Below are positions 15,397 through 39,852 of a stretch of DNA of 64,000 bases, one piece after another. Made by a program: the position numbers and the translations under genes. The DNA comes from Myxococcaceae bacterium (GTDB taxonomy: Bacteria > Myxococcota > Myxococcia > Myxococcales > Myxococcaceae). The stretch's first letter is position 1. Every line of letters starts with the position of its first letter. The stretch is taken from positions 6,714 through 70,713 of the forward strand of contig DASRBA010000259.1 in NCBI GenBank assembly GCA_035637895.1, written 5' to 3'. Below the pieces are notes generated by a model. That model was not told the DNA's origin. It ran no database searches and worked only from the letters and a program-made list of their open reading frames with translations.

Positions 15397-15570
15397 CGCC
15401 GGGGCGGCGCCGCTGAAAACGGTACGCGCTCCCGCCCGGCTGCTTGCGTAACGGTTTGTTTCAACTGCCGAAGGCGGCGCAGCGGGAGCCTCGCCCGGCG
15501 CTGGCGAGCGGCGTGCGGTTCACGCGGGTTGGCTCACGGCTGATGGCTCGAGGCACCGCGGCCCTGCGGC

Positions 15571-16605: not shown

Positions 16606-16715
16606 TTCGGGAGTCCTCCTGCGGCCAATGTAGGGAGGATCCCCGGTTGCGGCTTTTGGTCAGGCTGCGGACCGCCGCTCTAGCCATGGACCCGCGTCCG
16701 CGCGTAGATCGCCGC

Positions 16716-18215: not shown

Positions 18216-18327
18216 GGGAATGATCCGCACTGTGTTCAAGGAGTTGCTATTCAGTGGGGCTGAATAGTCGAACGGGTCGGCACGAGTCCCTTCTCGCGGA
18301 CAATGGTCCTTTCTTTACGGAGAAGAA

Positions 18328-19227
18328 GTGAGAAAGGTCTATCGCAACTCAAGTTACTCCATCTACCTTGATGACTGCTTGGAGTGGTTGCCCCGCCAAA
18401 AGGCGAACACGTTCCATGCCGTAGTCACAGATCCTCCATTTAGCACGCTTGAGTACAGTGCAAAGGAATTGCGGAAACGTCGCCGAGGACCCGGAGGTGT
18501 ATGGCGACTTCCACAAGCATCAGATGGCGCAATCCGACAGCCCGTTCCAAGATTCACGATCCTGAGTGGACATGACCACATCGGGGTGCTGGCGTTCCAC
18601 TTGCGCTTAGCGCCAGAGCTTCACCGCGTGTTGGTGCCTGGCGCGCATGTCTTCATTGCGAGCCATCCCCTCCTGTCACATCTGGTCGCACAGGCGTTCG
18701 GCATGGCTGGATTCGAGACGCGTGGTCAGATTATCAGGATCGTCAAGACGCTGAGAGGAGGGGATCGGCCGAAGCCCGACGACAAAGACTACAGAGGTTT
18801 GTCAGTCATCCCAAAATCGTGCTTCGAGCCTTGGCTTCTCTTCAGAAAGCCATGCAAGGGACGCGTTGTAGACAACTTAAGGCGCTATGGAGTTGGAGCC
18901 CTTAAAAGGCCGAGCGAGAAGGAGCCCTTCGCGGATTTGCTCAGTGTCTCTCAGACAAGAGCTTCTGAGCGACAACTAGGGGATCACCCTTCCTTGAAGC
19001 CCCAAGAATTGATGCGAAAGCTCGTACGAGCAGCTTTACCACTTGGGCAGGGAACAATCCTCGACCCCTTCATGGGCGCGGGCTCGACCATTGCGGCAGC
19101 GACGAACTTGGGGCTGCGGAGTGTGGGGGTTGAAAGCGACAAGACTTACTACCGATTGGCCAAAAGAGCGATTCCGAAGCTAGCGTGGTTCGAGGTGCCA
19201 GAAAGACCAACGGCGACAGTTGACTAA
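18328..19227 (+). CDS. DNA methyltransferase, beta-class N6-adenine/N4-cytosine type (motif IV DPPF before motif I FxGxGS)
   Basis: GTG start preceded by GGAGAAG. AVVTDPPFS at residue about 33 and DPFMGAGSTIAAA near the C-terminus. GC is markedly lower than the surrounding genome. Confidence 0.88.
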   Translation: MRKVYRNSSYSIYLDDCLEWLPRQKANTFHAVVTDPPFSTLEYSAKELRKRRRGPGGVWRLPQASDGAIRQPVPRFTILSGHDHIGVLAFHLRLAPELHRVLVPGAHVFIASHPLLSHLVAQAFGMAGFETRGQIIRIVKTLRGGDRPKPDDKDYRGLSVIPKSCFEPWLLFRKPCKGRVVDNLRRYGVGALKRPSEKEPFADLLSVSQTRASERQLGDHPSLKPQELMRKLVRAALPLGQGTILDPFMGAGSTIAAATNLGLRSVGVESDKTYYRLAKRAIPKLAWFEVPERPTATVD

Positions 19228-19880
19228 ATGCGTTTGGGGCTAAGCAGGTCCATTTGCTCTGCTGATGCTTTGGGGGCTTCTTGCAAATACACCCAGTTCT
19301 TCCGTAATTTCGCGATGCCCTTTCGGTCGAGAGTAGCCGTTCGGGTACCCAATTCACCTCGTGAATTGCGCCGAAAGTCAGCCCTGGTGACCTGAGCCAA
19401 GTATATCTCGGTAAACGTCATCGGCTTGCGATCCACGGCGGGCTCGGTCTCCCGGTCGATGCTGTACACAAACACGCACATCCACTGGTCGCGCGCTCCG
19501 TGGGTGTCGACCGCACCTCCCATCTTCCTAGTGGTCTTGATTTTCAAGCCCTGGGCGCCAGCCTTCACGCTGTTGCGCGGATACACGCCTTGCACCACTA
19601 GGTCTGGGTGGCCATTGAAGTACTTATTTTGGACCAGTGTTCGAGAATGCTTCGCCAGGCTCGCTGCCAGCATGTCTGATAGCAGTCCGGACATAATTGC
19701 GGGGCGAAGTGTGTCGTCCAGGCGGTGAAGACCCTTGCGGGTGAGAAGGAGGTTAACGTCAGAAAAGAAGTCGTACACGTCCTGAAGAGCCAGCTCAAAA
19801 TCCTTCAGGCGAAGTTCATATGGAAGCGCTCTGCCGGTGTTGAAGCTGGATGGGTTCGGGGTGTTCTTAGTGATTGGCAT
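19224..19880 (-). CDS. Hypothetical protein, candidate restriction endonuclease cognate to the adjacent methyltransferase (assignment by position only)
   Basis: 218-aa ORF convergent with the MTase and overlapping it by 4 bp at the stops. Low GC like the MTase. No recognisable family motif. Confidence 0.55.
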   Translation of the reverse strand: MPITKNTPNPSSFNTGRALPYELRLKDFELALQDVYDFFSDVNLLLTRKGLHRLDDTLRPAIMSGLLSDMLAASLAKHSRTLVQNKYFNGHPDLVVQGVYPRNSVKAGAQGLKIKTTRKMGGAVDTHGARDQWMCVFVYSIDRETEPAVDRKPMTFTEIYLAQVTRADFRRNSRGELGTRTATLDRKGIAKLRKNWVYLQEAPKASAEQMDLLSPKRI

Positions 19881-20051
19881 ATTCGAGGGAGCCTATTCTG
19901 CTGGACCTCCGATTCTGGCATAACTTGGCTCCTTGGAGAACCCAGGTCTTTAGCTGTTGTCTCCGTTGCGGATGCGGCCAAGCGCGAAAGACGGTGCAAA
20001 GTCGTGGGAATTCAAGAGTCTGTGTCGAAAGTTCGCGGATTCCTCGAAAGC

Positions 20052-21296
20052 ATGTATCCGGGCACGAAGCCCTTTGCGCGAGTGCGTGCTGTCCTCGAGC
20101 GAGTCGCAACGTGGCCGGGAGGGCCCGTGGCGATCGTTCTTCAGGGGCCACCGGGCGTAGGAAAGACGACCGCCGCGCGCGCCCTCGCCGTCGCCCGCGC
20201 TATCGCCACTGTTGACCCCGAGGTGCTCAATCTGGGGGAGGATCGAGCTGCGAAGATGGTGTTGCGGGACATCGAGATCGGTTGGTACCGCTCCATTTCC
20301 CTGCCCGGCCTGACCCCGTCATTAGCCGACAGCCAACTCTTTGGCCTAAAACCCAAGGGCGCAACGGACGTAGCTCCGCGGATTGGGCTGTTCGAGCAGA
20401 CCATGACCGGCGCTCGGGCCGGTTCCGGTGAATCGCACCAAGCCCTCATCCAGGAGGCACAAAAGGAGCGGCGCCGTATCAATCTCGTCACTGGAGGAGT
20501 CGTCCTCCTCGACGAGATCGGCGATGCACCTGAATGGGTGCAATTGAAGCTGCTTCGTCTGCTCAACGGGGAGCGAGTGGCACGTGTGCAAGGGGAAGGA
20601 GATCCTGATTACGAATTCTGTTTTCGCGGCATCATCGTGCTTGCTACCTGGCGGGAGCTTGACGGGAACAATGGGCTGCGGCCGGACTTCAAGCAAAGAA
20701 TCATAAGCAATCGTCTTCGGATGCCCAGTCTCTCAGAGTATCCAATTGAGGCTCGGCAGCGACTCGTTGTCTCAGTCGTCGAGGGCTCCAAAACAGCTCG
20801 AAGCGAAGCCCTGGCAGAGTTGGAAGGACTGTTCAGTGGGGCGGATGACCCGATCGCAAGCTCCTACCGCCTCGCGCTAAGCAAATCGAGGACGCTGACG
20901 ACCGCGGAGGTCACTGAGATCGCGAGTCAGGACTGGAGCCAACTGAGTGAGTTGCGCGGGCTCCGGGCCATTGTGCAGAAGGTCTATGACGGGTCCTCGG
21001 TCAAGGAGGCAGTCGCTGAGATTACCGATGAACTCCAAGCGCCGCAGGAAGGTGCTGTCCAAGAAGAGGCCGATCTAGCCCGATTCAAGCGGTATCTCTC
21101 CATGCCCGTGCCGCTCGCCACCGCGTTGCGGCAAGACAGCGTCGAGTGGGCAGGCAGGGTCAATAAACAACTGACCGAGCGCACCCACCGCTTCGATGAA
21201 GCCATCAGGAGCAGCGGGAGGAAGCGCGCTCAGGTCAAGAAGGACCTCGAAAACCTCCGACGCTCAAAAGCGAGTGGTCGACGCACTCCCAAGTGA
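20052..21296 (+). CDS. AAA+ ATPase, sigma54-activator-like core without GAFTGA loop or obvious HTH. Start uncertain (ATG 20052, or GTG 20004)
   Basis: Walker A IVLQGPPGVGKTT; Walker B VVLLDEIGDAPEWVQLKLLRLLNGERVARV...IIVLATWREL...DFKQRIISNRLRMPSLSEYP follows the bEBP AAA+ pattern. The track ORF start at 19725 overlaps the convergent gene, so the start was trimmed. Confidence 0.75.
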   Translation: MYPGTKPFARVRAVLERVATWPGGPVAIVLQGPPGVGKTTAARALAVARAIATVDPEVLNLGEDRAAKMVLRDIEIGWYRSISLPGLTPSLADSQLFGLKPKGATDVAPRIGLFEQTMTGARAGSGESHQALIQEAQKERRRINLVTGGVVLLDEIGDAPEWVQLKLLRLLNGERVARVQGEGDPDYEFCFRGIIVLATWRELDGNNGLRPDFKQRIISNRLRMPSLSEYPIEARQRLVVSVVEGSKTARSEALAELEGLFSGADDPIASSYRLALSKSRTLTTAEVTEIASQDWSQLSELRGLRAIVQKVYDGSSVKEAVAEITDELQAPQEGAVQEEADLARFKRYLSMPVPLATALRQDSVEWAGRVNKQLTERTHRFDEAIRSSGRKRAQVKKDLENLRRSKASGRRTPK

Positions 21297-21393
21297 GTGG
21301 CCGAACATCCGAGGAGCTTCGCCAACCCAGTGGTTCTGGGGTCTTGCAGAGCCAGAATGGGAGGCCCGCTGGTTGCAATTCAGTGGTCGCGAG

Positions 21394-21849
21394 GTGGCGT
21401 GCGCGATGATCAAGGTCGACGATGGCGAGCTACTCAGCGACATCCTCAAATGGTCGGTTGCTGGATTTGGCACCGCCTTCGAGGTGGCGGTTCCCTCTTT
21501 CGAGCCCTCCGGGTTGTTCTCGCGGAGCATGATGCAGGCGGCCGCTCTCGGGACGCGGGTCCGATTCTTCACCCGCTGGCCGGAGGAGAAGGACAAGCAG
21601 GACGCCTTGGCCCAGTTGATGGCTCACGATGTGGCCGTGGTCATCGTCCCCCACCTTCAAGCCCAAGCGGCGCTGCTGACCGATGAGTCCACCGGCCTGT
21701 GGTACGGCTGGGTCGAAGGGGTCGCCTTCCTGGGCTGCGGCGACGCCGAGGCCGTGTTGCTTCGGGAACTGCTGGAGACGATCGAAGATTGGGAGAGGGC
21801 GGCTAGCCGCGAGGTGCGGCGGCGCGCCTTCCAGAGGCGGCTGAACTGA
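21394..21849 (+). CDS. Small hypothetical protein (start uncertain: TTG 21373, GTG 21394 or ATG 21406)
   Basis: ORF in the operon gap between the AAA+ gene (ends 21296) and the P-loop gene (starts 21882), with protein-like composition (WFWGLAEPEWEARWLQF...). The portion of the track ORF upstream of 21296 overlaps the preceding gene. Confidence 0.5.
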   Translation: MACAMIKVDDGELLSDILKWSVAGFGTAFEVAVPSFEPSGLFSRSMMQAAALGTRVRFFTRWPEEKDKQDALAQLMAHDVAVVIVPHLQAQAALLTDESTGLWYGWVEGVAFLGCGDAEAVLLRELLETIEDWERAASREVRRRAFQRRLN

Positions 21850-21881
21850 AGCTAGCGGGTGGAGGAGAAAGGACAACGTCG

Positions 21882-23036
21882 ATGCAGAAGCGGATGTCGG
21901 AGTGGTTCTTCCTGAAGGACGAGTTCAGTTCGTTCATCGTCGACGCGCAGAAGCATGCGCAGCACCTGTGTGGTGTCGAGGATCGCAAGCTGCGCGACGA
22001 CCTGGCCCTTTCTTTGAGGGAGTGTGCCTACTCGCAGCGGGGTCACCATGCGATCATTTGGGGCAACGCCGGTCGTGGAAAGACACATCTAGCCCACCAT
22101 CTGGTGGTCACCGCTGTCGACAACCAGGCCATCCTGCCCATCTACGTGGACTGTCCGCCGTTTCCGTCGGCTAAGGCACCGCTCCACATGTTCTTCGGGG
22201 CGCTCCTCAAGTCGATTCCCTGGAAGACAGTCAAGGACTTCGTGGGCAAATACCGCGCGAAGGCAGAAAACGACTCGACGCTTGAGAAGCGCGTCCAAGA
22301 TGTACTCCAAGCAGACACGAACATCTACGACGCGATGGTGGAGGGACTGGGGATGGGAAAGGAGTCCTCGATCCGGAGTACTCTGGGCTGGCTTGGGGGC
22401 GAGCCCGGTGGGAAGGTGAACGCCGCCCACGAGGCACCCGAGCAGTTCACGGACGAGGGGCAATTAGCTCGCAACATCGGCGCGTTGGGGGAGATGCTCC
22501 TCATCGCAGAGGGAAAGAACCTCATTTTCTTGGTGGACGAAGCAGAGCGCTTTCAGACGATTGCCAGCGGAGAGCGTTACTGGATCTGGCTCTCCGCGAT
22601 TCGCGAGCTCTTCCGCCGGCCAGCTGTGGGATTGATCCTCTTTATCATCGCTCGGAATCGCGACGATATTCCAAATATCCTCTGGGAGGACGAAATAAGC
22701 TCAGTTATCGGTGGCAACAATATTCATGAGTCGGCGAATTTCGCGCAGCCGAGCGCCGAGAGCTTCCTCAAGGATCTGCTAGACACAGTGGTCAAGCGCA
22801 GTCCGGCGCCCACCGAATTGCAGAAGATTGTGCAGGAGAAGGGCGAGTCTCTGGAGACGTATCCTTTCACAAAATCCGCCTTCGAAGAATTTATTGCCCA
22901 CCATTCAATAGGCACGCTGACGAATATTCCACGAGCCATTATCGGGAGCCTTGAGCACTGCGCTCGTCGCGCGATGACCCTTGACAAGAAGTTGATCGAC
23001 CATGACGTCCTACGCAGGGTGATCGAAGGGGTCTGA
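21882..23036 (+). CDS. P-loop NTPase (Walker A GNAGRGKT, Walker B IFLVDEAE), unknown family
   Basis: HAIIWGNAGRGKTHLAHHLV and LIFLVDEAERF. 384 aa. Confidence 0.8.
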   Translation: MQKRMSEWFFLKDEFSSFIVDAQKHAQHLCGVEDRKLRDDLALSLRECAYSQRGHHAIIWGNAGRGKTHLAHHLVVTAVDNQAILPIYVDCPPFPSAKAPLHMFFGALLKSIPWKTVKDFVGKYRAKAENDSTLEKRVQDVLQADTNIYDAMVEGLGMGKESSIRSTLGWLGGEPGGKVNAAHEAPEQFTDEGQLARNIGALGEMLLIAEGKNLIFLVDEAERFQTIASGERYWIWLSAIRELFRRPAVGLILFIIARNRDDIPNILWEDEISSVIGGNNIHESANFAQPSAESFLKDLLDTVVKRSPAPTELQKIVQEKGESLETYPFTKSAFEEFIAHHSIGTLTNIPRAIIGSLEHCARRAMTLDKKLIDHDVLRRVIEGV

Positions 23037-23052
23037 AGGGCAGGGGAAGATC

Positions 23053-24414
23053 ATGGCCAGGATTAGAGTGGAATGCGAGCCGCGCATCACCTGGGATCCC
23101 GTCGTCGGCGGTCCGGGTGAGCAGTACGTCCACCTTGGCGCGGTCATCGACAGCGGGCGCCGCCGGACGGTCAAGTTTGACGCCGATGGGAATTTCGTCG
23201 TCTTGGAGGTCGGAAAACGAGGGAGTGGGAAGTCATTCGGATTGGGTTCGATTATGGAGGCCTTCGCCGCCGCCGCTGACACGTGCACCATTGCCAAGCA
23301 GAGCCCGAACCGGCGGGGTGTCCTGCTCTTGGACCCGCTGGATGTGCATTGGACCGCCATCTACCCCGTCCGGAAGGATGGTTCGGTCCACATGCAGGAG
23401 CAATACAAACTCCTGGAGCGTTTTCCAGAGGTCGCGGTCGAACCCATCAATGTCGCAGTGTACATGCCCGCCGGACGAGGTCGACCCGAGGACCCTGCTG
23501 TCTTCCGGGCATACCACCTTCCTGTCTGCGACCTCACGTCGGAGGACTTCGCGTTGCTCTACGGCGCGAACCTGGTGAGTGACCCGGCAGGAATGCTGAT
23601 TGGGGAAATCCACGACAAGGTGAGCCGGTTGGGGTTCACCCGAGGCGCCACCGACGTTCCTGCCAAGGAGGTCTTTGGCCTCCAGGACCTCATCGATTGC
23701 TTGCAGGATACGGACATACAGGCCAACTACACAGTGCAGACTCTGCGAGCCGTCCGGCAGCGCCTGCTGTCCTGGCTTCGCGATCCGCTTTTCCAACAGC
23801 CCTCCGGGACCCCGGTGACGGAACTGGTCCAGCCGGGGCGAATGGGCATCTTATGCCTCAACCGCCTCTCGGAAGAGATGCGTAACGTGGTCACCGCCGT
23901 CATCGTCCGGCGGCTCAAGGCGGATCGGAGCCGGGCGAGCAACCTGGAGCGTGATCGCGCCTTCAATCCGCACCCCCTCAATAGACCTGCGGGGTTACCG
24001 CGGACGATCCTAGCCATCGACGAGGCCCAAATGATCCTGCCGGCGACGGGAAATAGCCACGCGCGGAGCGCAATCGAGTCCTATGTCCTCGAAGGTCGAA
24101 ACTTCGGGCTCTCGATCTGGATGGCTACCCAACGGCCGCGAGGGGCCATCTCGGAAAGAGCTAAGAGCCAGATCGACACGCTAATCGTCCACAAACTATC
24201 CACGGCGGAGGATCTGGAGGCCGTGGCGGGTCTCCTCCAGTCTGCGGAGCCCCTCAAAATTAAGGTCAACGAGTCGGTGGTCCCCCTAGCAGAATTGACG
24301 CGCAGCCTCGATGTGGGGATGGCCATCGTCTCCAGCGGGAACGGGAACGTCCATCGCGCCTTCGTGGTCGAGATGCGGCCACGGGTCGTCGCCCACGGTG
24401 GCCAGGCGTTCTGA
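23053..24414 (+). CDS. HerA/FtsK-superfamily (DUF87-like) ATPase
   Basis: Walker A VGKRGSGKSFG, Walker B ILAIDEAQ, and the characteristic IWMATQRP...DTLIVHKL (ATQRP / arginine-finger region) seen in HerA/VirB4-like translocases. Confidence 0.8.
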   Translation: MARIRVECEPRITWDPVVGGPGEQYVHLGAVIDSGRRRTVKFDADGNFVVLEVGKRGSGKSFGLGSIMEAFAAAADTCTIAKQSPNRRGVLLLDPLDVHWTAIYPVRKDGSVHMQEQYKLLERFPEVAVEPINVAVYMPAGRGRPEDPAVFRAYHLPVCDLTSEDFALLYGANLVSDPAGMLIGEIHDKVSRLGFTRGATDVPAKEVFGLQDLIDCLQDTDIQANYTVQTLRAVRQRLLSWLRDPLFQQPSGTPVTELVQPGRMGILCLNRLSEEMRNVVTAVIVRRLKADRSRASNLERDRAFNPHPLNRPAGLPRTILAIDEAQMILPATGNSHARSAIESYVLEGRNFGLSIWMATQRPRGAISERAKSQIDTLIVHKLSTAEDLEAVAGLLQSAEPLKIKVNESVVPLAELTRSLDVGMAIVSSGNGNVHRAFVVEMRPRVVAHGGQAF

Positions 24415-24426
24415 CGAGGACCGGCC

Positions 24427-25707: not shown

Positions 25708-26488
25708 TGAGTTTCACACCGCATGGATGGCCAGAATGCAGCAGGCAGAAAGAACGGCAAAGGACGTCATCGACATCTGCTCGAAGCTCCCGGCGAACCC
25801 CTTTGAGGCCCGAGCGCGCCTCCACAGTACCGCCAGCAAGCTCGAAGCGTCAGGCTTGCGTCCGCTGGCTCCCCCGATGGACTTGGTGCGCCATGTTGAG
25901 GACGAATGCGTGCGGGCGCGGGCTGAGTTCTGGGACCAGATGGCCGAGGCCTGCCGCCGCAAGGAATGGCCGATCGACGGCTCCACAAACCGGCGCCTGG
26001 TGGGTCGAGGGCTGATAATTGAGCTAACCGACGACGAAGTGCGCATCGATGAGATTTCACTCCGCCTTTCTCCTCACGCAGCTTCGGTGGTGGAGGTAAT
26101 CGCTGGCGAGGTCAGCGCATTGGTGCCGACGGACTTCAACCCTGAAAGATATATGGCCTTGCTGGTAACGGCTTACGACGCGGCCCCGGGCGGAGTGGAG
26201 AAGCCGCTGGAGGCGGTCTACCGAGCTGCCGTCTTTGCTTCTCAGAAGTCGGCGTTCTGGAAGGGGCTCAACCCGGACCATTTCGTGCGGTTAACGCGTC
26301 CCGCGTTCCGGGCGCGACTGGCCCGCTTGCTTCATCTTGGCACACGGACCGCAGACGGGCGGGAGATCAGGTTTGGGAGCACTGTCGTCGCAAAGGACGC
26401 CTGGGAAGTCTATTCCCCTGGCGAGGAACGGCTAGTACAGGTCGGCCGTATCTCGTTGGGTTACGCAGGTAGCCAACATGAACATTGA
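25673..26488 (+). CDS. Hypothetical protein (start uncertain: ATG 25673 overlapping the upstream gene, or ATG 25727)
   Basis: ORF continuing the operon. Its 3' end overlaps the next gene's start by 11 nt. Confidence 0.65.
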   Translation: MDPSGEEATVSDEFHTAWMARMQQAERTAKDVIDICSKLPANPFEARARLHSTASKLEASGLRPLAPPMDLVRHVEDECVRARAEFWDQMAEACRRKEWPIDGSTNRRLVGRGLIIELTDDEVRIDEISLRLSPHAASVVEVIAGEVSALVPTDFNPERYMALLVTAYDAAPGGVEKPLEAVYRAAVFASQKSAFWKGLNPDHFVRLTRPAFRARLARLLHLGTRTADGREIRFGSTVVAKDAWEVYSPGEERLVQVGRISLGYAGSQHEH

Positions 26489-27785
26489 CCAAGTTGATGA
26501 GTCGGAAGCGCGGCGAATCCTCCGTTCACTGCGCTCAGGTGCCACGCCCACTCAGTACGCCAGTCAGATCTTCGTAGGGCAGGGACCCTGGTTCGATACC
26601 GCGCGGAAGATGATGCACGACACCGCAATAGATGAGGACTTTGAGGTGCGGTTCCTCCGAGCCGCCTACGGCGGCGGCAAGACACTGTTCCTCCGCTGCC
26701 TCGAGGAGGCGGCCCGGGCCGACGGATGGGTCACGGCTTACGTACTCCTCAAGCAGGGCTCTGTGGAGTTGGACAAGTTCGACACGTGGGTGCGAGAGGT
26801 GGCACGCACCGTTGAGTTTCCTGACGCAAGCCGAGGGATGAACACTCTGCTAGAGCGGGCGATGGCTACGCACCTGAAGTCCCACGGCTATGATCCTAGC
26901 CGTGCTACTTCCTTGAATGTCCTGGAGCGCGCCGGAGAGGGCCTCGCGAAATTCTGCCGCGGGAGGGCGCTCGAATACGATTTCTCCTTAGCCCTACGTG
27001 CGACCCTCGAGGCCCGCTTTGAGCGTGACGAAATTCGACTCCATGAGATTGCCAAGTGGCTGAGTGGAGGATCTGAGAGACTGGCGGTCGACCCCGCCCG
27101 TTTCGGTTCGAACCCGCACCGCCCGGCTACGCGAGCTGGAGCAGTCCAGCTGAAACAGCTAGGACCGGGGACGGCCGATCAGTTGCTCCGGCTCCTGGCT
27201 CTGCTGACGAAGATGAGCGGGCAAAAGGGCCTGATGCTTTCCTTCGATGAGGTCGAATTGATCGGCACGCTTCCGGAGAAGCGATTGAAAATTGCACTCC
27301 AGACGCTTCGGGAGTTGGTCGATCACACGGATCCGGCTCTGGAACCGCCCTCGACGTGCCTGTTCGTGGCCGCGACGCCAGAGATGTTCGAGAGCCCGAG
27401 GATGCTGCCCAGTTACAAAGCGCTCCAGGACCGAGTCGACAAGCTTCCCACCTCGCGGCGTGGTCCCCCTAATCTGCGCGGTACGGTGATTGACCTCGAC
27501 GCGACCGAGTTAGGCGAAGGCGACCTCGCGGCACTGGCAGAGCGCATCATGGCGCTGTACCGGAAGAGCGGGGAGGACGTGCCTCCCAACTTGGATGGGC
27601 AGCTAAAGGAGTTGGTCAAGACCATCACGGTACGTCGCTACAGCATCGCCCGGCCGCGACTCTTATGCCGGTGCCTGCTTGACATCTTAGACGGCAAGTT
27701 CGGGGCCGACATGCCCCAGGAGATCGCTGCCAGGAACGAGCAGATGACGAAGGAACGTCAGACAGAGATGAGGGTTAAGGCGTGA
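26478..27785 (+). CDS. P-loop ATPase, BrxD/DUF2791-like (family recalled, not searched)
   Basis: N-terminal EARRILRSLRSGATP box followed by Walker A AAYGGGKTLFL and Walker B LMLSFDEVE. 435 aa. Confidence 0.75.
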   Translation: MNIDQVDESEARRILRSLRSGATPTQYASQIFVGQGPWFDTARKMMHDTAIDEDFEVRFLRAAYGGGKTLFLRCLEEAARADGWVTAYVLLKQGSVELDKFDTWVREVARTVEFPDASRGMNTLLERAMATHLKSHGYDPSRATSLNVLERAGEGLAKFCRGRALEYDFSLALRATLEARFERDEIRLHEIAKWLSGGSERLAVDPARFGSNPHRPATRAGAVQLKQLGPGTADQLLRLLALLTKMSGQKGLMLSFDEVELIGTLPEKRLKIALQTLRELVDHTDPALEPPSTCLFVAATPEMFESPRMLPSYKALQDRVDKLPTSRRGPPNLRGTVIDLDATELGEGDLAALAERIMALYRKSGEDVPPNLDGQLKELVKTITVRRYSIARPRLLCRCLLDILDGKFGADMPQEIAARNEQMTKERQTEMRVKA

Positions 27786-28855
27786 GTAGCCGCGACTCCT
27801 CTGCCCGACGGATCGTCCGCGCGCTGCGAAGCGGCGTAGCCAGTCCAGAGTCAGTGGTTCGCATGAAGATCGGAAGCGAGGAGATCGAGGCCCAGTTTAA
27901 TGCCGCGTTCGACGCCTTCCTGCAGGGCGGTCAGACGCCCGGCCCGATACTTTTAGAAGGCGACTGGGGGTCGGGGAAAACACACATCAAAACGCTGCTG
28001 CGCCATGAAATGCGGCGCCGCCAGATTCCGCATGTAGCAACCGCTCTTGGCCGTTACCAAGGCTCTCTGGCCCACCTGCACTTGACTGTGCCACAGTGGC
28101 TCACAACGGTCGACTTCGGGGGCGCGCGTGGACTGCGCGCCGCCCTGGACGCTGGCATTCTGTCTCCGGGCGGCACCCACGCCTGGGCCAATACTAAGGT
28201 CACGCCCTTCGCGGAAGGCTTACGATGGGCGTTAGGGGGCTGGGACGAGGCTGGTTGGCTGCGTGCGCTCGGACATTGCTACGCCATGCCGAACCAAGGC
28301 TACCAGCACTGGAAGGCGCTCGACTTAGTATTGTCGGCCGGGGAGTACGTGGCGACGGTCGGTGGAAGGGGAATCGCCCTCCTTTTGGACGAGGCCGAAA
28401 ACGTCTGCTTACAGCACGACATCAGGGGACGGAGGCGTAGCTACGATGCGCTGCGCCGGCTGTATCTCAGTCAACACTTCCTATTAACCTTGTTCGTGAC
28501 GGCACGGTTTCTCGATCAGGTTCAACAGGACTGGAGGCAGGGCCTGGCCTCGGGCTGGGTCTACTGGACGGAGGAGGCTCGTGAATTCGTCTCGAATCTG
28601 CGCCACATGACGCGCTTGAAGACGCCGGCCCTGAGGCTGAGCGACGCCAAGGAGTTGGTGCGGCGCATTCATGCTGTCTACCAGGAAGCATACGGGCCCA
28701 TTTCGTTCGCTACCTCGGAGGCGGACATCCTCCGGGCGTGGACGCGGACCCCAACTCACTCCGTGCGACTGTTGATCCGCTTGACCGTCAGCGATCTGGA
28801 CGTTGCGGCCGGGGTAACATCGACACGGACTCTAAATGAAGAGTCGGTTGCCTAG
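27782..28855 (+). CDS. P-loop ATPase, paralog of the preceding BrxD/DUF2791-like gene
   Basis: Same N-terminal box SARRIVRALRSGVASP, Walker A GDWGSGKTHIK, Walker B IALLLDEAE. 4-nt overlap (ATGA) with the upstream paralog. Confidence 0.75.
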   Translation: MSSRDSSARRIVRALRSGVASPESVVRMKIGSEEIEAQFNAAFDAFLQGGQTPGPILLEGDWGSGKTHIKTLLRHEMRRRQIPHVATALGRYQGSLAHLHLTVPQWLTTVDFGGARGLRAALDAGILSPGGTHAWANTKVTPFAEGLRWALGGWDEAGWLRALGHCYAMPNQGYQHWKALDLVLSAGEYVATVGGRGIALLLDEAENVCLQHDIRGRRRSYDALRRLYLSQHFLLTLFVTARFLDQVQQDWRQGLASGWVYWTEEAREFVSNLRHMTRLKTPALRLSDAKELVRRIHAVYQEAYGPISFATSEADILRAWTRTPTHSVRLLIRLTVSDLDVAAGVTSTRTLNEESVA

Positions 28856-29146
28856 TGCTATCGCAGGGTGAATGCTCGGGACTCTACGGGAGATGCACTT
28901 CGATGACGAGCGCTCTCAAGCGAAGGGTGTTGGGATGATACCTGTTCGGGGGATGCTCCACGGCGGCAACGGGACGTTGAAACCCAGTTCGTCGAACAGC
29001 ACGTCACGGGCCACCCCCTGTAGGTTGGGAGGCCGGCACGGCGAGTCCCGCCACGATGGCCGTACCTCCGACTATCACCCCGGGCCGCGTTGCGTTCCAC
29101 GCAAGTGCCTGTAGCGCCAGATTCTCACCGTCGAAACCGATCTCGG

Positions 29147-30028
29147 TTATGCACCGAGCGTAGCAAGCAGCGGGATGGCACGGGTGGCGGTGTCGAAATG
29201 GGTGGCGTCCAGTTCAATGCCGATGCTGCGGTAGCCAACCGCGACGGCGGCGGCAATGGTGGAACCTGCGCCCATGAACGGGTCCAAGACAACGCCCTCA
29301 CCGAGCGGCAGCGCGGCGCGAACGAGCTGGCGCATGAGAGCCTGCGGCTTGAGCGACGGGTGGGGCGCGATGGCGCGCTCCTTCTTGTGGGTGGGCGAAG
29401 ACCGGATAACGTCGACGAAAGGTGCATCCTCCGAGATGCGGCGGAGGCCGCCAGTCTTCCACTTGCGGAGGTTGTCTTGGACGCGGCCTTCGCAGGGCTT
29501 GCGGAACAGGCCCCAGGGCTCCCAACAGGAGCGAGGCATCACGGTGACGTTGGCGAACTCCTCGTGTGCGTTTTTGGGACGGTCGCCACCGCGGAGGGTC
29601 TGCACGAGGCGGATGATCTCCCCACGCTTCTCGAAGCCAGCACCCGTTAGCGCTTGGTAAAGGACATGCGAAAGCAGTGGGTTCGTGGCGATAAACATGT
29701 GGGCGCCGGGAACGAGCACGCGGTAGGCGCGCACAGCGAAGTCTGCGAAGAATCGTCCCAGTGCCTCAAGGTCATCGACCGTAAGCACGGTGAAGCGCGG
29801 CAGGGGACTTCGCCTGGAGCCGTCGAATGACGGAGGAATCCGCCAGACGCCGCCGCGGTCTCGCCGGAGCTTCTCCTGCTCCCGCGCAGAGTACTCCTTC
29901 AGACCATACGGTGGGTCAGTGACAATTGCGTGGATGGAGTCGGGTGGTTGCGCGTCCATCCACCCCAAACAGTCTCCTTGGTGGATGGTGTGGCTGGCAT
30001 CGAACGCTAGCGCGGCCAGAGCGGTCAT
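29147..30028 (-). CDS. DNA methyltransferase, beta-class N6A/N4C type, paralog of the 18328..19227 MTase and in inverted orientation
   Basis: AIVTDPPYGL (motif IV) and DPFMGAGSTIAAA (motif I). Collinear with MTase-1 along the whole length at about 55% identity by eye (RDRGGVWRIP, LPRFT, RVLVPGAHMFIA, NPLLSH, LRGGDRPK, HPSLKPQ, LVRAALPLG). Confidence 0.88.
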   Translation of the reverse strand: MTALAALAFDASHTIHQGDCLGWMDAQPPDSIHAIVTDPPYGLKEYSAREQEKLRRDRGGVWRIPPSFDGSRRSPLPRFTVLTVDDLEALGRFFADFAVRAYRVLVPGAHMFIATNPLLSHVLYQALTGAGFEKRGEIIRLVQTLRGGDRPKNAHEEFANVTVMPRSCWEPWGLFRKPCEGRVQDNLRKWKTGGLRRISEDAPFVDVIRSSPTHKKERAIAPHPSLKPQALMRQLVRAALPLGEGVVLDPFMGAGSTIAAAVAVGYRSIGIELDATHFDTATRAIPLLATLGA

Positions 30029-30064
30029 CGCGCCGATCTTGCCAGTGTTTATGATACCTCAAAT

Positions 30065-30526
30065 TTAATTTCCGTAGTGACCTTCCTCAAAGTCCCAGAT
30101 TCCCCCTTGCTCGCCCTGTTCCAGGACCGAGTAGACGGCATGGACGTCGGCCTGCGGGGGGACATCGACCGCCCGGAGACATCCAGATCCCTGCTCAAAA
30201 GTGCATCCTAGCTCCGACAGCCGCGCCCACCACTCCCCGACTCGGCCGGCTTCGGCATCGTTGTTGAGCATGACGCGGTAGGTGGAGTGGCCGCCGCGGA
30301 TCGACACACTTTCGAACTCGAACAGCCCGTCCGCAGGGTGCGCAAAGACGACGTCTTCTGCGCTCACCCCGAAGGCGTAGAACGGCACGTTGCGAAGTCG
30401 CAGTCGGCGCTCGTCGATGCGTTCCGCCCAGAGTGTCTCGGTCGCTGAGCCATGCCATGCCCCCGGCTCCAACTGGAACCGCACCTTCACGAGATCGCCT
30501 TCGGCACGGTGGTGATCGGCCGTCAT
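30065..30526 (-). CDS. Candidate immunity protein for the upstream HNH toxin (DUF4265-like, recalled)
   Basis: 153-aa ORF whose start overlaps the toxin's stop by 4 nt. Acidic, Trp-containing composition (ETLWAERIDERRLRLRNVPFYAFG). Confidence 0.55.
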   Translation of the reverse strand: MTADHHRAEGDLVKVRFQLEPGAWHGSATETLWAERIDERRLRLRNVPFYAFGVSAEDVVFAHPADGLFEFESVSIRGGHSTYRVMLNNDAEAGRVGEWWARLSELGCTFEQGSGCLRAVDVPPQADVHAVYSVLEQGEQGGIWDFEEGHYGN

Positions 30527-31692
30527 TTGGCACCTTGGAGGTGCTCTTCCGTGGTCTTTGCGCCCTTCTCCAAATTACAAGTCCGACAGGTGTTCTGAGC
30601 GTTGTCGATCGTGTTGTTTCCTCCCCGCGACTTGGGCTGAGCGTGGTCCGTGTTCCGTTGGCTCGGTCCTGGTTCGTCGGTGGTCTCCTTGCCACAGAAC
30701 ACGCATTTCCCATCCGCGTGGGACTCAGCAGCGTCCTTGGTCTGTGGAGAGAATCTCTTGCCCGCTCCGGGTCCGCCGGACGCTCCCGCCTTGGGACCAG
30801 CGGACATGGCCACCGCGCCGCCGAGGTCGATGACCACGCTCCCATTCGCCGCGAGCGTGAGGGAGCGGGTGCCTTCAATTTCGGGAATCCGGAAGCCTTG
30901 TGCCTCCGCCAGCGCGGCAGCTCTCGAGCCTCCGGGGAGGTCGAGGGCGCTTCCCTTGAACAGCCCCGCGAACTTGGCGACGCCATACGTGGCGACCATC
31001 ACCACGATGCGCCCCACCGTTGGGCCCATGCGCTGTCCGTAGTGGATGCCGGCCACTCGGACGCCCGCGAAGTCCCGAGCGAGCTTCAGTTCGTCCAGCA
31101 TGGAGATGAAGCCCTTCACCACATTGTTGAAGACGTCCACCCCCACGAAGGCGATCAGGTTGCTCATCGAGACCATGAACAGAATCTTCGTGACCGGCTC
31201 AGGAGAGAGCAGTTCCACGATCATCCCCAGGAACAGCACGCTCAACATCGCGCGCACCTGGTCAGCGGTCATGGAACGGACCGCGGAGGCCGCATCCTCC
31301 AGTGCCTCAGCGAACGCGAAGTGCAGGGCTACGAAGGTGGCGCCTTCGTCATCCAACTCGCCTGAGGCGTTCAGGTCGTCCCAGCAATCGAACCGCTTGC
31401 CGGTGATGTGGTGGCACCACCGGAGGTACCCCTCGGCCTTGAGCCGCTGCATCGGGTCATCGCCAGCGAGGATGAACCGCGGTCTTCCGTTCTTCGGCAG
31501 ACCAGGAAGCGGGCCGTTGGCGTACAGCATCCGCATCCCTTGCTGGAGCTCCTCGCGGCTGAGGTCCACGGGCTTGTATCCGCCCGGACGGATGACCAGC
31601 ACCGACGGCGCAGAGACACGGCGTTGCTGGACCGGCAGCCCAGGAATGGCCGTCGAGCAAGCGCACAGGAAGGTGACCACCCACACAGCCAT
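30523..31692 (-). CDS. Lipoprotein polymorphic-toxin-like protein with C-terminal HNH nuclease domain
   Basis: Start trimmed to the ATG at 31692, giving MAVWVVTFLCACSTA (lipoprotein signal). The C-terminus CVFCGKET...DHAQPKSRGGNNTIDNAQNTCRTCNLEKG is a classic HNH (C..C...DH..P.S.GG.N..N....C..CN..K). Confidence 0.72.
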   Translation of the reverse strand: MAVWVVTFLCACSTAIPGLPVQQRRVSAPSVLVIRPGGYKPVDLSREELQQGMRMLYANGPLPGLPKNGRPRFILAGDDPMQRLKAEGYLRWCHHITGKRFDCWDDLNASGELDDEGATFVALHFAFAEALEDAASAVRSMTADQVRAMLSVLFLGMIVELLSPEPVTKILFMVSMSNLIAFVGVDVFNNVVKGFISMLDELKLARDFAGVRVAGIHYGQRMGPTVGRIVVMVATYGVAKFAGLFKGSALDLPGGSRAAALAEAQGFRIPEIEGTRSLTLAANGSVVIDLGGAVAMSAGPKAGASGGPGAGKRFSPQTKDAAESHADGKCVFCGKETTDEPGPSQRNTDHAQPKSRGGNNTIDNAQNTCRTCNLEKGAKTTEEHLQGAK

Positions 31693-31733
31693 GGTCTTCG
31701 GCCAGCCGAGCATGCCGGCATTATGGTCTACGC

Positions 31734-33401: not shown

Positions 33402-33411
33402 AGCCGCACCC

Positions 33412-35763
<2,352 letters not shown>

Positions 35764-35990
35764 GCCGGGGTCATAGCAGGTGGGGAAACACCGAGCGCAT
35801 GGTGCACGGCGCGGTCGAAGGGGGTGAAGCCCGCCTCACCCGCGCACCATGCGCTCCGGTACGTTTCCAGCCCGGAGTCGGCAAGAAGCCCCGGGCCCTG
35901 CGATCGGAAGACTCGCCCAGCCCCTGAGTTGTCGCATTCGGCCTCGAGGCCCGCGGATTCCGCGTGGTTGGCGGTCCGTGCCGCCGCGCG

Positions 35991-39850: not shown

Positions 39851-39852
39851 GG

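Follow-up and report, generated by a model that had tools for sequence, protein, structure and literature searches.

The capture-system theme has been described in two previous reports (PMC10853773 and PMC12839542). In the window, i.e. the whole 64-kb stretch of DNA analyzed here, a rare and uncharacterized multi-ATPase module sits in an otherwise ordinary kind of island. This island is probably the young, un-ameliorated part of a chromosomal variable region that was assembled horizontally in an uncultured soil myxobacterium (Myxococcaceae), at a long-used insertion hotspot that begins where the coding sequence of an aldehyde dehydrogenase (ALDH) gene stops. Horizontal acquisition had already been proposed in a first-pass annotation and is borne out by a block that is missing from the relatives L087 and L093, and by the presence of the same 10-gene unit on an unrelated contig.

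Composition and extent of the island

The first-pass annotation had placed a low-GC island at 18216–31733, and sliding and change-point analyses of GC content indeed revealed a discontinuity at 18151–31750, the best segment of an unsupervised two-breakpoint fit to 50-bp bins. The GC content of this segment is 0.611, compared with 0.718 in the left and 0.709 in the right flank. All 13 of the 1-kb bins inside the island (maximum 0.650) fall below all 51 bins outside (minimum 0.658; Mann–Whitney p = 3e-8). GC3 is 0.722 ± 0.052 in the 13 island genes (range 0.60–0.79, maximum 0.792) versus 0.926 ± 0.037 in 32 genes outside (minimum 0.799; p = 2e-7), and reaches 0.967 in ALDH and 0.946 in GH3, the flanking genes. 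The dinucleotide signature of the island lies within the host range.

The drop in GC content had thus been recognized correctly, whereas several of the earlier figures need revision. The stretch at 18.3–29.1 kb has a GC content of 60.6% and not 50–58%, a range that holds only for the RM pair (18.3–19.9 kb, ∼55.5%); the ATPase operon is at 62%. The stretch at 29.1–31.7 kb, estimated at ∼62%, is at 63.7%, and the flanking genes are at ∼70% (regional GC 71–72%) instead of 72–75%. A boundary between two compositional tiers at 29.1 kb does not hold in detail: the largest step within the island is located at ∼20050 (0.553 to 0.621), where the first ATPase gene starts, and lies inside one 10-gene unit. 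The 55% versus 62% GC of pair and operon would also fit two modules that had been fused earlier, ahead of the transfer.

Gene content of the imported block

The strain-specific imported block comprises 10.8 kb (18216–28970, GC 0.604) and begins directly after the ALDH stop codon (18213–18215), as determined by base-level alignment. Its first gene, MTase1 (18328–19227, + strand; GC 0.556, GC3 0.60), encodes a β-class N6/N4 DNA methyltransferase with a TDPPF motif IV and a C-terminal FMGAGS (Pfam N6_N4_Mtase, 2.2e-20; PADLOC MTase_II PDLC03215, 1e-92) that shares 54% amino acid identity with MTase2 at the right edge of the island. Tail-to-tail with MTase1, with a 4-bp overlap, lies the gene of a PD-(D/E)xK nuclease-like protein of 218 amino acids (19224–19880, − strand). 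This protein gave no match in Pfam or PDB sequence searches and a poor AF2 model, and its family comprises >8000 clusters at 70–82% identity, all annotated as “hypothetical.” The motif GHPD-x19-E-I-K is invariant in 26 of 26 homologues; only in the window copy is the catalytic Glu replaced by Lys. On account of this exchange (E113K), the window copy is probably inactive. The earlier designation as an RM pair therefore holds for the pairing, but not for the nuclease, whose catalytic Glu is substituted. The same convergent pairing is found on the contig JGI 3300050046, on Citrobacter pCAV1321-4938, and on Gordonia pGRS1; of the two window methyltransferases, MTase2 is the one nearer to the plasmid RM methyltransferases.

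The adjacent operon consists of eight genes on the + strand. Gene 1 (20052–21296) encodes an AAA+ ATPase of the sigma54-activator/RtcR type (Pfam Sigma54_activat, 9e-10, and AAA_5; PADLOC RtcR_PspF, 2.7e-10), in which no DNA-binding or receiver domain was recognizable. Its start is uncertain (20052 in the gene call of L082, 20127 in that of L081), and its orthologues in L089, L091, and L092 are 40–59% identical. Gene 2 (21406–21849) encodes a degenerate small PLD-family (HKD) nuclease. The window copy has no Pfam match, whereas its orthologues in L089, L090, and L091 match PLDc_2; aligned with these, it shows QAQ in place of HAK and a 15-residue deletion that takes out the GSHN segment. Gene 3 (21882–23036; 56–75% identity to orthologues) encodes a P-loop ATPase of the AAA_16/AAA_22 type (Orc/Cdc6-STAND-like), with Pfam matches to AAA_22 (1.7e-5) and AAA_16 (2.3e-5) that are both under the gathering thresholds. 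The product of gene 4 (23053–24414, 453 amino acids; 62–80% identity to orthologues) is a HerA/FtsK-superfamily ATPase (PADLOC mad8, 4.8e-16, and several HerA models at ∼1e-10; PDB HerA chains, 1.6e-5; NCBIfam HerA_antiphage, 2e-8, far under the cutoff).

Gene 5, orf426 (24427–25707), which serves as the signature of the module, encodes a DNA-binding protein with multiple winged helices and a fold like that of BrxA, the FokI recognition domain, and SspB. Gene 6 (25673–26488) encodes a conserved protein of ∼255–271 amino acids to which no fold was assigned; family and PDB searches gave no match, and in L089, L091, and L092 an orthologue (33–58%) is found at the corresponding place. Gene 7 (26478–27785) codes for a BrxD-family (Orc/Cdc6-class) ATPase (Pfam BrxC_BrxD, 6.2e-34, above gathering; PADLOC BrxD, 1.8e-31; NCBIfam BREX_BrxD, 106 bits, with the cutoff at 350). 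Gene 8 (27782–28855), which overlaps gene 7 by 4 bp, encodes a second, divergent BrxD/KAP-like P-loop ATPase with visible Walker motifs (Pfam BrxC_BrxD, 2.4e-10; KAP_NTPase, 3.4e-5; orthologues 38–59%). Walker A and B motifs are kept in all five P-loop ATPases of the operon, and both nucleases of the block (E113K; HAK to QAQ plus deletion) lack catalytic residues and look inactivated. Two damaged nucleases next to five ATPases with intact Walker motifs suggest that the imported module is probably disarmed or decaying in this copy.

RM-like pair and operon form one pre-assembled unit of 10 genes (18216–∼28970). The contig JGI 3300050046, which is unrelated, carries the same order (MTase, convergent nuclease, AAA+, PLD, etc.) at 60–73% amino acid identity, including a nuclease of 246 amino acids that is 73% identical to the window copy; therefore, the fusion of pair and operon is older than the transfer. 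The eight genes of the core keep their order in L089/L090, L091, and L092, where the contexts are unrelated (transposases; CBASS plus BrxR). Entry of the pair and the operon into this genome as two separate events is unlikely. The strongest GC step falls exactly at their border, three of five external operon copies are without the pair, and small plasmids also carry the pair on its own; however, the identical gene order on JGI 3300050046 speaks against separate arrival, as do L087 and L093, which lack both parts, and no intermediate state was seen.

The locus in relatives

In eight relatives (L005, L096–L098, and L100–L103; ALDH identity 74–77%), ALDH abuts DapD with gaps of 5–138 bp, and DapD directly after ALDH is the ancestral arrangement. 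In the window, DapD (36958–37770) is 18.7 kb away from ALDH. The part of this hotspot outside the low-GC island (31749–36957) is older and has host composition (GC3 0.93–0.95). According to Pfam, it contains GH3 (31749–33401, + strand), a Ser/Thr kinase-TPR gene (33412–35835, − strand), and a sigma70-r4/HTH regulator (∼35997–36878, − strand). GH3, previously taken as a core flank, is not a stable neighbor: it is missing from L093 and from the ALDH neighborhood in all other relatives. It adjoins MTase2 in L085, with no toxin pair between, and HNH in L086.

The relative L093 (core ∼89.5%) shows the order ALDH, 93 bp, MTase2, orf307, kinase, regulator, and DapD, with a uniform, host-like GC content of 70–79%. 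The closest relative, L087 (core 93–96%), carries MTase2, DUF4265/HNH, and GH3, and in place of the block (18216–∼28970) a 3.9-kb DSR2-like SIR2 gene with a GC content of 0.605. Its homology to the window ends at 18215, resumes at 29037 (82%), and continues over 30078–33381 (90%) and 33427–42381 (94%). In blastn searches with L087 and L093, the match stops at 18215/18216 and restarts at 29037/29076. In L094, ALDH is followed by unrelated DNA (GC 62–67%) with a PIN toxin.

The novel DNA is bounded on the right by a frameshifted remnant of orf120 (28971–29146, − strand), a small gene that is intact between ALDH and MTase2 in L087. The remnant shows 71% nucleotide identity to L087 positions 3485–3606, with weaker matches back to ∼28971, and its translation retains N-terminal similarity before the frame changes. 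The polarity is therefore gain, not loss.

The neighboring MTase2 (29147–30028, − strand; PADLOC MTase_II, 1.5e-119) is a resident orphan β-class methyltransferase of this clade. Its orthologues in L087, L085, and L093 have a GC3 of 0.90–0.96 and are 89–91% identical to each other at the nucleotide level, whereas the window copy has a GC3 of 0.76 and is 84–85% identical to them. In the core, the window groups with L087 as its sister, yet its MTase2 allele forms the outgroup, outside alleles from lineages that are more distant, and the private third-position changes of this allele are 48 S-to-W and no W-to-S. It is a discordant low-GC3 replacement of an old resident gene that is found in four lineages. 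Further right, sliding identity to L087 is 72–76% at 30029–30328 and 93% from 30329 on, so that a putative, sharp recombination breakpoint lies at ∼30330 inside the DUF4265 immunity-type gene (30065–30526, − strand; Pfam DUF4265, 1.5e-27).

The last gene of the island (30523–31713, − strand) encodes a predicted lipoprotein toxin that carries an HNH nuclease at its C terminus (Pfam HNH_5, 1.7e-10; HNH, 1.3e-8), whose N terminus, MLGWPKTMAVWVVTFLCAC/S, is followed by a ∼330-amino acid N-terminal domain. It is 91% identical to L087 at the nucleotide level (GC3 0.80 versus 0.81) and 80% identical at the amino acid level to a fragment in L086 that abuts GH3; its GC3 drops from 0.80–0.90 in the N-terminal part to 0.68 over the final 100 codons. 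With its core-like divergence and equally reduced GC3, HNH/DUF4265 is an older acquisition common to L087 and L086. The first-pass annotation had treated 29.1–31.7 kb as one compositional tier, a stretch that in fact mixes this older layer with the MTase2 replacement. The step within DUF4265 could instead reflect the SIR2 insertion of L087 itself, a third sequence being absent there.

History of the hotspot

The hotspot is layered, and the earlier proposal of at least two acquisition events agrees with this. The first layer has host composition and comprises the orphan MTase2, the kinase/TPR gene and regulator, and then GH3. The lipoprotein-HNH toxin and the DUF4265 immunity gene (GC3 ∼0.8) followed, which are common to two relatives. 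The last layer, found only in this strain, is the 10.8-kb block.

It is improbable that the region is ancestral and was lost by the relatives, its low GC reflecting a local mutational or selective peculiarity of defense genes. The first-pass annotation would have taken genes shared by relatives with the same composition as a sign of ancestry, and such sharing was found for HNH/DUF4265 (L087 and L086), whereas the block occurs in neither of the two closest relatives, whose junctions differ. MTase2 is likewise common to four lineages, but its window allele is the outgroup described above. Moreover, in each host examined, the module has a lower GC content than the DNA around it (in L089, the operon forms a ∼58% GC block next to 73–74% GC DNA), which makes composition alone a weak clock. 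Loss is also contradicted by orf120, as deletion cannot regenerate a gene that is whole in L087 and broken in the window, and by the ALDH–DapD junction of the eight more distant relatives.

Under the favored reading of a recent horizontal gain, import would have proceeded without a site-specific recombinase. Donor DNA, from a relative of lower GC content but similar backbone, has probably recombined in via a homology anchor on the right, replacing the resident orf120-MTase2-DUF4265 3′ segment up to the crossover at ∼30330, with the left junction at the ALDH stop. Sister lineages filled the same site otherwise, with a DSR2-like SIR2 protein (L087) or a PIN toxin (L094). The MTase2 discordance and the DUF4265 breakpoint point to import by recombination and not by an integrase. 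No donor genome was found, and the single 12-kb import and its right-hand anchor are deduced from divergence patterns only. ALDH shows 96–97% identity up to its stop codon, with no divergent patch at the left junction; a distant donor would thus require an illegitimate left join or a crossover that falls precisely where the gene ends.

A similarly improbable reading is an element of the classical integrase-mediated kind (genomic island, ICE, or prophage) that has since lost its integrase and att sites by decay. The low GC, the defense cargo, and the sharp left boundary would suit such an element, as would the operon copy of L091, which is placed among rve/DDE transposase and IstB genes. However, as the first-pass annotation had noted for integrase, tRNA, and att repeats, the searches came back empty: no tRNA or tmRNA was detected in the whole window or in nine comparator loci, direct or inverted repeats at the island boundaries did not exceed chance-level short matches, and integrase, recombinase, and transposase Pfam families matched neither an island gene nor any called gene at 13.0–42.4 kb. 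Phage Pfam families were likewise missing from the island and ±10 kb, and a scan of viral contigs with the orf426 profile gave no match. Coding sequence is dense in the island, and its noncoding gaps (112, ∼170, 291, and 36 bp) leave no space for a decayed integrase, the largest being filled by the orf120 remnant. Finally, the same junction holds different cargo in different lineages, and the resident gene next to the novel DNA is present as a discordant allele, as is typical of a hotspot that turns over by recombination.

A chimera from assembly or binning, in which foreign contig sequence was fused to a myxobacterial contig, is very improbable. The source is a metagenome-assembled genome, the comparators are all metagenome contigs or MAGs, and L081, L082, and L088 may stem from the same sample and read set and are not independent strains, but L081, a different assembly, reproduces both outer and all internal junctions at 99.98% identity, MTase2, DUF4265, and HNH orthologues keep order and position in L087, L085, L086, and L093 from other samples, and the orf120 remnant links the novel block to the resident backbone.

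Proposed function and comparison with known systems

Pfam and PADLOC assignments support the earlier view of a defense- or conflict-related content, with an RM-type pair, a multi-ATPase operon, a second methyltransferase, and a toxin/immunity pair. The RM-like pair is predicted to mark and restrict DNA, and the toxin/immunity pair may serve in kin discrimination. The operon would encode an anti-invader machine of the HerA/FtsK-Orc/Cdc6 “capture” type, in which the winged-helix protein and the Orc/Cdc6-class ATPases would find foreign DNA, the HerA/FtsK ATPase would translocate, and the PLD nuclease would cut.

Composition and boundaries of the island

The low-GC island spans 18216–31733 and is flanked by genes for an aldehyde dehydrogenase (ALDH, Pfam 1.9e-166) and a GH3-family enzyme. 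Its GC content is 0.611, compared with 0.718 upstream (1–18215) and 0.709 downstream (31734–64000). A two-breakpoint least-squares fit to 50-bp GC bins, performed blind to the coordinates of the first-pass annotation, placed the edges at 18151–31750. Inside and outside separate fully. In 1-kb bins, the highest value inside the island (0.650) stays below the lowest outside (0.658, p = 3e-8), and GC3 is 0.60–0.79 for the 13 genes inside (mean 0.72), compared with 0.926 ± 0.037 for the 32 other genes of the window (p = 2e-7); ALDH and GH3 reach 0.967 and 0.946. The island that had been delimited by eye is therefore real, and its base composition is atypical of the host. The Karlin δ* dinucleotide signature did not separate it from equal-sized host pieces.

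The depth and internal structure of the dip needed revision. A drop from 72–75% to 50–58% GC had been estimated for 18.3–29.1 kb. The drop itself stands, but this segment has 60.6% GC and only the RM-like pair at its left end comes near 55%, whereas the flanking genes have ∼70% and the segment 29.1–31.7 kb has 63.7%. The boundary between two compositional tiers, formerly set at 29.1 kb, is not the main internal step, which instead lies at ∼20050 (from 0.553 to 0.621).

The absence of an integrase, a tRNA, and clear att repeats, also part of the first-pass annotation, was borne out. ARAGORN detected no tRNA or tmRNA gene in the 64-kb window or in nine comparator loci, and Pfam revealed no recombinase, integrase, transposase, or phage families among the island genes or the genes called at 13.0–42.4 kb. 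The repeat search returned only short, chance-level matches at the island edges. A tRNA suspected in L094, a relative with ALDH, from the peptide “GFEPAT” in an ORF translation was not found by ARAGORN either. A classical integrase-mediated island, integrative conjugative element, or prophage is thus very unlikely, as the atypical composition is the only one of its marks that fits. A search of IMG/VR contigs found no relative of orf426 (operon gene 5; 24427–25707, forward strand), and phage carriage of the module was rejected. Promoter and terminator scans gave counts at chance level. A perfect hairpin with 8-bp stem (CTATTCAG-TGGGG-CTGAATAG, 18247–18267) lies in imported DNA, 32 bp past the ALDH stop codon; it has no T-tract and was hence missed by the terminator scan.

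Gene content and recurrence of the imported block

The left part of the island comprises MTase1, a β-class N6/N4 methyltransferase (18328–19227, forward strand), a convergent gene for a 218-amino acid PD-(D/E)xK nuclease-like protein (19224–19880, reverse strand), and an eight-gene operon (20052–28855, forward strand). These 10 genes form the imported block (18216 to ∼28970). The right part, encoded entirely on the reverse strand, holds a frameshifted remnant of orf120 (∼28971–29146), a second methyltransferase gene, MTase2 (29147–30028), a DUF4265 immunity-type gene (30065–30526), and a gene for a lipoprotein-like HNH toxin (30523–31713). From its first gene to its last, the operon codes for a sigma54-activator-type AAA+ protein, a small PLD-like protein, an AAA_16/22 ATPase, a HerA/FtsK-like ATPase, orf426, a ∼260-residue protein, BrxD, and a BrxD/KAP-like ATPase.

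Anchored on orf426, an operon of seven to eight genes was found collinear in three further contexts. The copy in L089/L090 shows 49–80% amino acid identity to the window operon, the copy in L091 is surrounded by transposases and a PIN toxin, and the copy in L092 lacks the PLD gene and lies beside a CBASS system and BrxR. At L092 14554–21296, the operon directly adjoins the CBASS genes (patatin, DncV-like NTase, E1/E2, and JAB), a BrxR-type regulator, and a C5 DNA methylase. Such surroundings are typical of defense islands and support a defense role for the operon.

On an unrelated contig (JGI 3300050046), an N6_N4 methyltransferase gene and a convergent 246-amino acid gene, whose product is 73% identical to the nuclease-like protein of the window, precede the operon in the same 10-gene order. 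Because this order recurs, the step from 55% to 62% GC at 20.05 kb does not indicate separate arrivals here. The operon of L089 (5400–14300) has ∼58% GC beside DNA of 73–74% GC (1–2000). The module is thus poorer in GC than a second high-GC host as well, so that little can be concluded from its composition on how long ago it was transferred. The operon is rare: among 1.84 billion proteins, the orf426 family counts 235 representatives at E ≤ 1e-3, of which 64 pass E ≤ 1e-30, and each of its 74 clusters is annotated as hypothetical.

A variable site between ALDH and DapD

The first-pass annotation had proposed to check whether ALDH and GH3 are adjacent in related genomes. In this comparison, GH3 turned out to be variable, and the adjacent pair is ALDH and DapD. 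The Myxococcaceae MAGs retrieved by a genome scan with ALDH (77–92% identity) keep the upstream synteny and show neither GH3 nor a GC dip downstream; among the relatives at 82% or below, GH3 is not nearby and downstream synteny is lost. The genome scan being insufficient alone, the evidence for an empty site comes from a metagenome scan with ALDH and from members of the GH3 cluster. Relatives were compared with the window by GC3-frame gene calls and tblastn. In eight relatives (L005, L096, L097, L098, L100, L101, L102, and L103; ALDH identity 74–77%), DapD directly follows ALDH after a gap of 5–138 bp. L099 and L007 have larger gaps (1.6 and 6.5 kb, respectively), and in the window, where DapD lies at 36958–37770, 18.7 kb are interposed. 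The ancestral neighbors are ALDH and DapD, and GH3 itself belongs to the variable region.

The closer relatives differ in what they carry at this site. L087, the closest (core identity 93–96%), has ALDH, orf120, MTase2 (GC3 0.90), an SIR2_2 protein, DUF4265, HNH, GH3, orf307, and the kinase gene. In the next closest, L093 (∼89.5% nucleotide identity in the core), ALDH is followed after 93 bp by MTase2 (GC3 0.96), orf307, a kinase/TPR gene, a sigma-like regulator, and DapD, with 70–79% GC throughout. GH3 abuts MTase2 (GC3 0.94) in L085, which lacks the toxin pair and has lower-GC small ORFs of its own upstream; in L086, GH3 is abutted by HNH. In L094, ALDH is followed by 2.5 kb of unrelated DNA (62–67% GC) with a PIN-domain gene. 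One and the same junction thus carries the 10-gene unit in the window, SIR2 in L087, a PIN gene in L094, small ORFs in L085, and no such cargo in the near-minimal site of L093, whereas ALDH and DapD adjoin in the eight relatives. By annotation the cargo is RM-type, Dsr2-like, PIN, and BrxD/HerA-like, none of it a complete known system. The feature is a core-flanked defense/conflict hotspot that is probably turned over by recombination.

Several other details of this region were observed. The SIR2_2 protein of L087 (1208 residues; 4596–8222, reverse strand; GC 0.605, GC3 0.65) lies between MTase2 and DUF4265 and matches PADLOC Dsr2 (1.1e-26) with its N-terminal domain only; it is a low-GC defense insertion that arose independently, at a second point of this hotspot. 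Upstream of MTase2 in L085 (1–1012), a segment of 60–67% GC encodes a 143-residue protein of two similar halves and, further upstream, an ORF ending in “...GTIRDGGINEVPR”. Neither has a family match, and the segment may be another toxin/immunity-type cassette. The 307-amino acid ORF (L087 11634–12688; L093 3948–4914), also without family match, precedes the kinase/TPR gene and follows GH3 in L087 or MTase2 in L093. The window, in which the ends of GH3 and the kinase gene lie at 33401 and 33412, lacks this ORF, which represents another indel of the region. GH3 (31749–33401) has a host-like GC3 of 0.95, yet is absent from L093 and all other ALDH neighborhoods, and its best homologues outside the small clade (Desulfolucanica, Clostridia, and Polyangiaceae) are only ∼48% identical; GH3 may itself be an old, ameliorated acquisition. 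Exact-protein lookups of the 555-residue GH3 ORF and of the protein P0001 returned no match, nor did a metagenome scan with GH3.

The HNH genes of the window and L087 are 91% identical (GC3 0.80 and 0.81, respectively). Because this divergence is close to that of the core, the HNH/DUF4265 layer is older than the split of the two lineages. MTase2 and the kinase/regulator genes, found in all clade members, form the first layer, GH3 (not in L093) the second, HNH/DUF4265 (window, L087, and L086) the third, and lineage-specific cargo the last. Horizontal acquisition in multiple events, suggested from the two-tiered composition, thus holds, but with other boundaries and with more layers than had been proposed. 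It had also been considered that the island would be ancestral if close relatives carried the same genes with the same composition, and this is in part the case for its right part.

Arrival of the imported block

Homology to L087 extends over 36 identical bases through the ALDH TGA, is then lost, and resumes at ∼29037. The window keeps the frameshifted remnant of orf120, a small gene that lies between ALDH and MTase2 in L087, beside MTase2. Hence, L087 shows the ancestral, intact state, and the window lineage gained the block rather than other lineages losing it.

MTase2 shows a discordant phylogeny. The MTase2 alleles of L087, L085, and L093 are 89–91% identical to each other at the nucleotide level (0.78–0.83 at third positions), whereas the window allele shows only 84–85% identity to these three (0.65–0.68 at third positions), unlike GH3 and ALDH, for which L087 is the nearest relative of the window. 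The window allele has 56 private third-position changes (48 S→W and 0 W→S), compared with 9–19 in the other alleles. Gene conversion by MTase1 as the source of the low GC3 was rejected, because the nucleotide identity of MTase2 to MTase1 (0.547) is the same as in the other alleles (0.546–0.560). Within the DUF4265 gene, the sliding identity to L087 changes from 0.72–0.76 (30029–30328) to 0.93 from 30329 on.

The junctions, the MTase2 discordance, and the breakpoint are most simply read as traces of one import event (∼12 kb, 18216 to ∼30330). The donor would have been a relative of lower GC whose backbone was similar, with the imported DNA anchored by homology at the right and joined to the end of ALDH at the left. 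Such a process is termed recombination-mediated hotspot turnover or homology-facilitated illegitimate recombination. Alternatively, the breakpoint in DUF4265 could be owed to the SIR2 insertion of L087, which sits next to this gene. For the single import, no donor genome was found. Three further assemblies, L081 (ENA ERZ27256644) and L082/L088 (Logan SRR6185295), are 99.9–100% identical to the window; they confirm the junctions at the assembler level and probably do not represent independent strains.

The RM-like pair

MTase1 features the motifs TDPPF and FMGAGS and matches Pfam N6_N4_Mtase (2.2e-20) and PADLOC MTase_II (1e-92), as expected for a type II methyltransferase. The 218-residue protein belongs to a family of more than 8000 clusters (at 90%) with 70–82% identity across phyla, annotated as “hypothetical” everywhere. 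Its assignment as a nuclease rests on motif and gene context: the motif GHPD-x19-E-(I/V)-K is invariant in 26/26 homologues and two plasmid copies, whereas the AF2 model (pLDDT 62.6) gave EcoRV as the best Foldseek PDB match at a non-significant E of ∼1. The window copy alone has a lysine (K113) at the position of the catalytic glutamate (codon 113, 19542–19544, reverse strand), and the endonuclease next to MTase1 thus lacks the intact catalytic motif of a type II RM system.

Convergent pairing of methyltransferase and nuclease occurs in four unrelated contexts, including pCAV1321-4938, a 4.9-kb ColE1-type plasmid of Citrobacter, and Gordonia pGRS1. In the window and on two plasmid loci (L173 2290–2895; L174 5998–6603), the nuclease gene is always convergent with a β-class methyltransferase gene, and the family is also found on mobilizable ColE1-type plasmids of 2–5 kb from Klebsiella, Citrobacter, and Raoultella. 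By motif and context, the family appears to be a widespread group of type II REases with no entry in Pfam, NCBIfam, or PADLOC. In the literature, we found no report of cleavage activity for the GHPD...EIK family, only the annotation “hypothetical protein.”

The eight-gene operon

The HerA/FtsK-class ATPase matches PADLOC HerA models (∼1e-10) and HerA chains of the PDB (1.6e-5) and has intact Walker A and B motifs; the call holds at superfamily level only, with all NCBIfam scores far below the equivalog cutoffs. BrxD matches Pfam BrxC_BrxD above gathering (6.2e-34), and a second, divergent copy matches KAP_NTPase. The model of orf426 (pLDDT 89.9) matches BrxA, the recognition domains of FokI, N.BspD6I, and BpuJI, and SspB. 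Pfam detected no REase domain in the operon ATPases, and a PDB sequence search with orf271 and BrxD returned nothing useful.

Orthologues of the operon feature a PLDc_2 nuclease. In the PLD-like protein of the window (21406–21849), HAK is replaced by QAQ, and the GSHN segment is missing due to a 15-residue deletion. This lesion and the E113K exchange of the nuclease-like protein are identical in L081 and L082. Judged from these motifs, both nucleases of the imported block are apparently inactivated, whereas Walker A and B are retained in all five ATPases.

It appears rather unlikely that the 10-gene unit is an undescribed composite defense system, in which RM-like methylation would provide self/non-self marking to a DNA-capture machine and of which the window carries a disarmed version. 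Such a version, with both nucleases dead and the ATPases intact, might be tolerated since the resident MTase2 had already modified the genome.

Significance

Integrase-free clustering of defense genes at a recombination hotspot is an already known pattern, and the island itself is ordinary in this respect. Hotspots of this kind have seldom been documented in Myxococcota, and the present one is well resolved. It shows the full series from the empty ALDH|DapD site over old layers of host-like composition to a recent import, whose footprint consists of the discordant allele of a resident gene and a sharp breakpoint.

What is most novel here is the cargo, a rare predicted HerA/Orc-Cdc6/BrxA-like/PLD module, optionally tied to an unannotated RM family. 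It provides three leads: an operon that fits a “capture” class predicted only computationally; a very large unannotated PD-(D/E)xK family that accompanies β-class methyltransferases from soil Acidobacteria to ColE1-type plasmids of Klebsiella and Citrobacter; and what looks like a natural loss of activity in both nucleases following transfer, which bears on the domestication or decay of costly defense modules.

Comparison with known systems

HerA/FtsK “capture” systems with Orc/Cdc6 ATPases and a DndG/SspB/FokI-like wHTH protein were predicted by comparative genomics (PMC10853773; also PMC12839542), and BrxD belongs to the Orc/Cdc6 AAA+ class (PMC12839542). The window operon shares with these systems a HerA/FtsK ATPase, a BrxD-family Orc/Cdc6 AAA+ protein in the same operon, and a fast-evolving multi-wHTH protein of the DndG/SspB/FokI/BrxA type, as well as a second Orc/Cdc6-like or KAP-like NTPase, a nuclease effector, and mobile neighborhoods. 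In capture systems, the nuclease is an REase, or an iREase sits within the Orc/Cdc6 protein; the nuclease of the window operon is instead a small stand-alone PLD (HKD) protein, and Pfam showed no REase domain in the ATPases. It also differs by an extra sigma54-activator-type AAA+ protein, an extra ∼255-residue protein, and an optional type II RM-like pair. We found no description of the exact eight-gene architecture in the literature and no match to PADLOC candidate systems.

Likeness to BREX is limited to a BrxD-family ATPase above the Pfam threshold, the BrxA-like fold of orf426, and the adjacent methyltransferase. The tripartite BREX core consists of the ATPase BrxC, the methyltransferase PglX, and the phosphatase PglZ, and BrxD is otherwise an accessory of type 2 BREX that is paired with the helicase BrxHI (PMC12839542). 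In the island, Pfam and PADLOC detected only the BrxD-family ATPases of BREX and no PglZ, PglX-type methyltransferase, BrxC, BrxB, or BrxL; BrxHI is absent from the operon as well. BREX membership is rejected, with PglZ, PglX, and BrxC missing. The resemblance to MADS consists of an eight-gene operon in a hotspot, a HerA-like ATPase that matches mad8 (4.8e-16), and methyltransferases that weakly match mad2, whereas the window operon has no kinase or specificity subunit. The published MacSyFinder model demands MAD6, MAD7, and MAD8 (bioRxiv 10.1101/2023.03.30.534895); beyond mad8 and the weak mad2, no mad profile, including mad6 and mad7, matched at E ≤ 0.01 (PADLOC), and with both mandatory components missing, MADS membership is rejected.

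The plasmid RM modules of Citrobacter pCAV1321-4938 and Gordonia pGRS1 share with the window a β-class methyltransferase that is convergent with and abuts a ∼200-residue GHPD...EIK nuclease. The plasmid nucleases are 65–67% identical to that of the window and have the catalytic glutamate where the window copy has lysine. The plasmid methyltransferases are longer (372–374 residues) and nearer to the resident MTase2 (58–61%) than to MTase1 (48–50%), which suggests that MTase2 is an orphan left over from an older RM system of this family.

The architecture of the putative toxin pair matches that of the myxobacterial SitA/SitI systems (PMC5562445, PMC8546572). In a myxobacterial host as well, the toxin begins with a lipobox-like N terminus (...VVTFLCAC|S), followed by a ∼330-residue N-terminal region and a C-terminal nuclease domain (HNH_5 and HNH at residues 348–401 of the 407-residue ORF translation), and the DUF4265 gene lies immediately downstream, with a 4-bp overlap at the stop codon of the toxin gene. 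The lower GC3 of the toxin and immunity parts, 0.68 in the toxin domain, would be expected of swapped cassettes. SitA proteins comprise six escort-domain families and are delivered in a TraAB-dependent manner (PMC8546572). In contrast to these systems, no sitB was seen at the window locus. DUF4265 was not found as a SitI or immunity family in the searchable literature.

The site as a whole compares with core-flanked hotspots such as the pheT–histidine kinase defense hotspot of Pseudomonas aeruginosa, described together with MADS (bioRxiv 10.1101/2023.03.30.534895). Both have conserved boundary genes, strain-varying cargo, and variable size, and neither requires a dedicated integrase. The window hotspot is known from six or seven metagenomic lineages and not from a population of complete genomes. 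Of its boundaries, only the left one, at the ALDH stop codon, is the same in all relatives, whereas the right one shifted outward as MTase2, the kinase/TPR gene, and GH3 became resident. Beyond anti-phage genes, the window hotspot also carries a kin-discrimination-type toxin pair.
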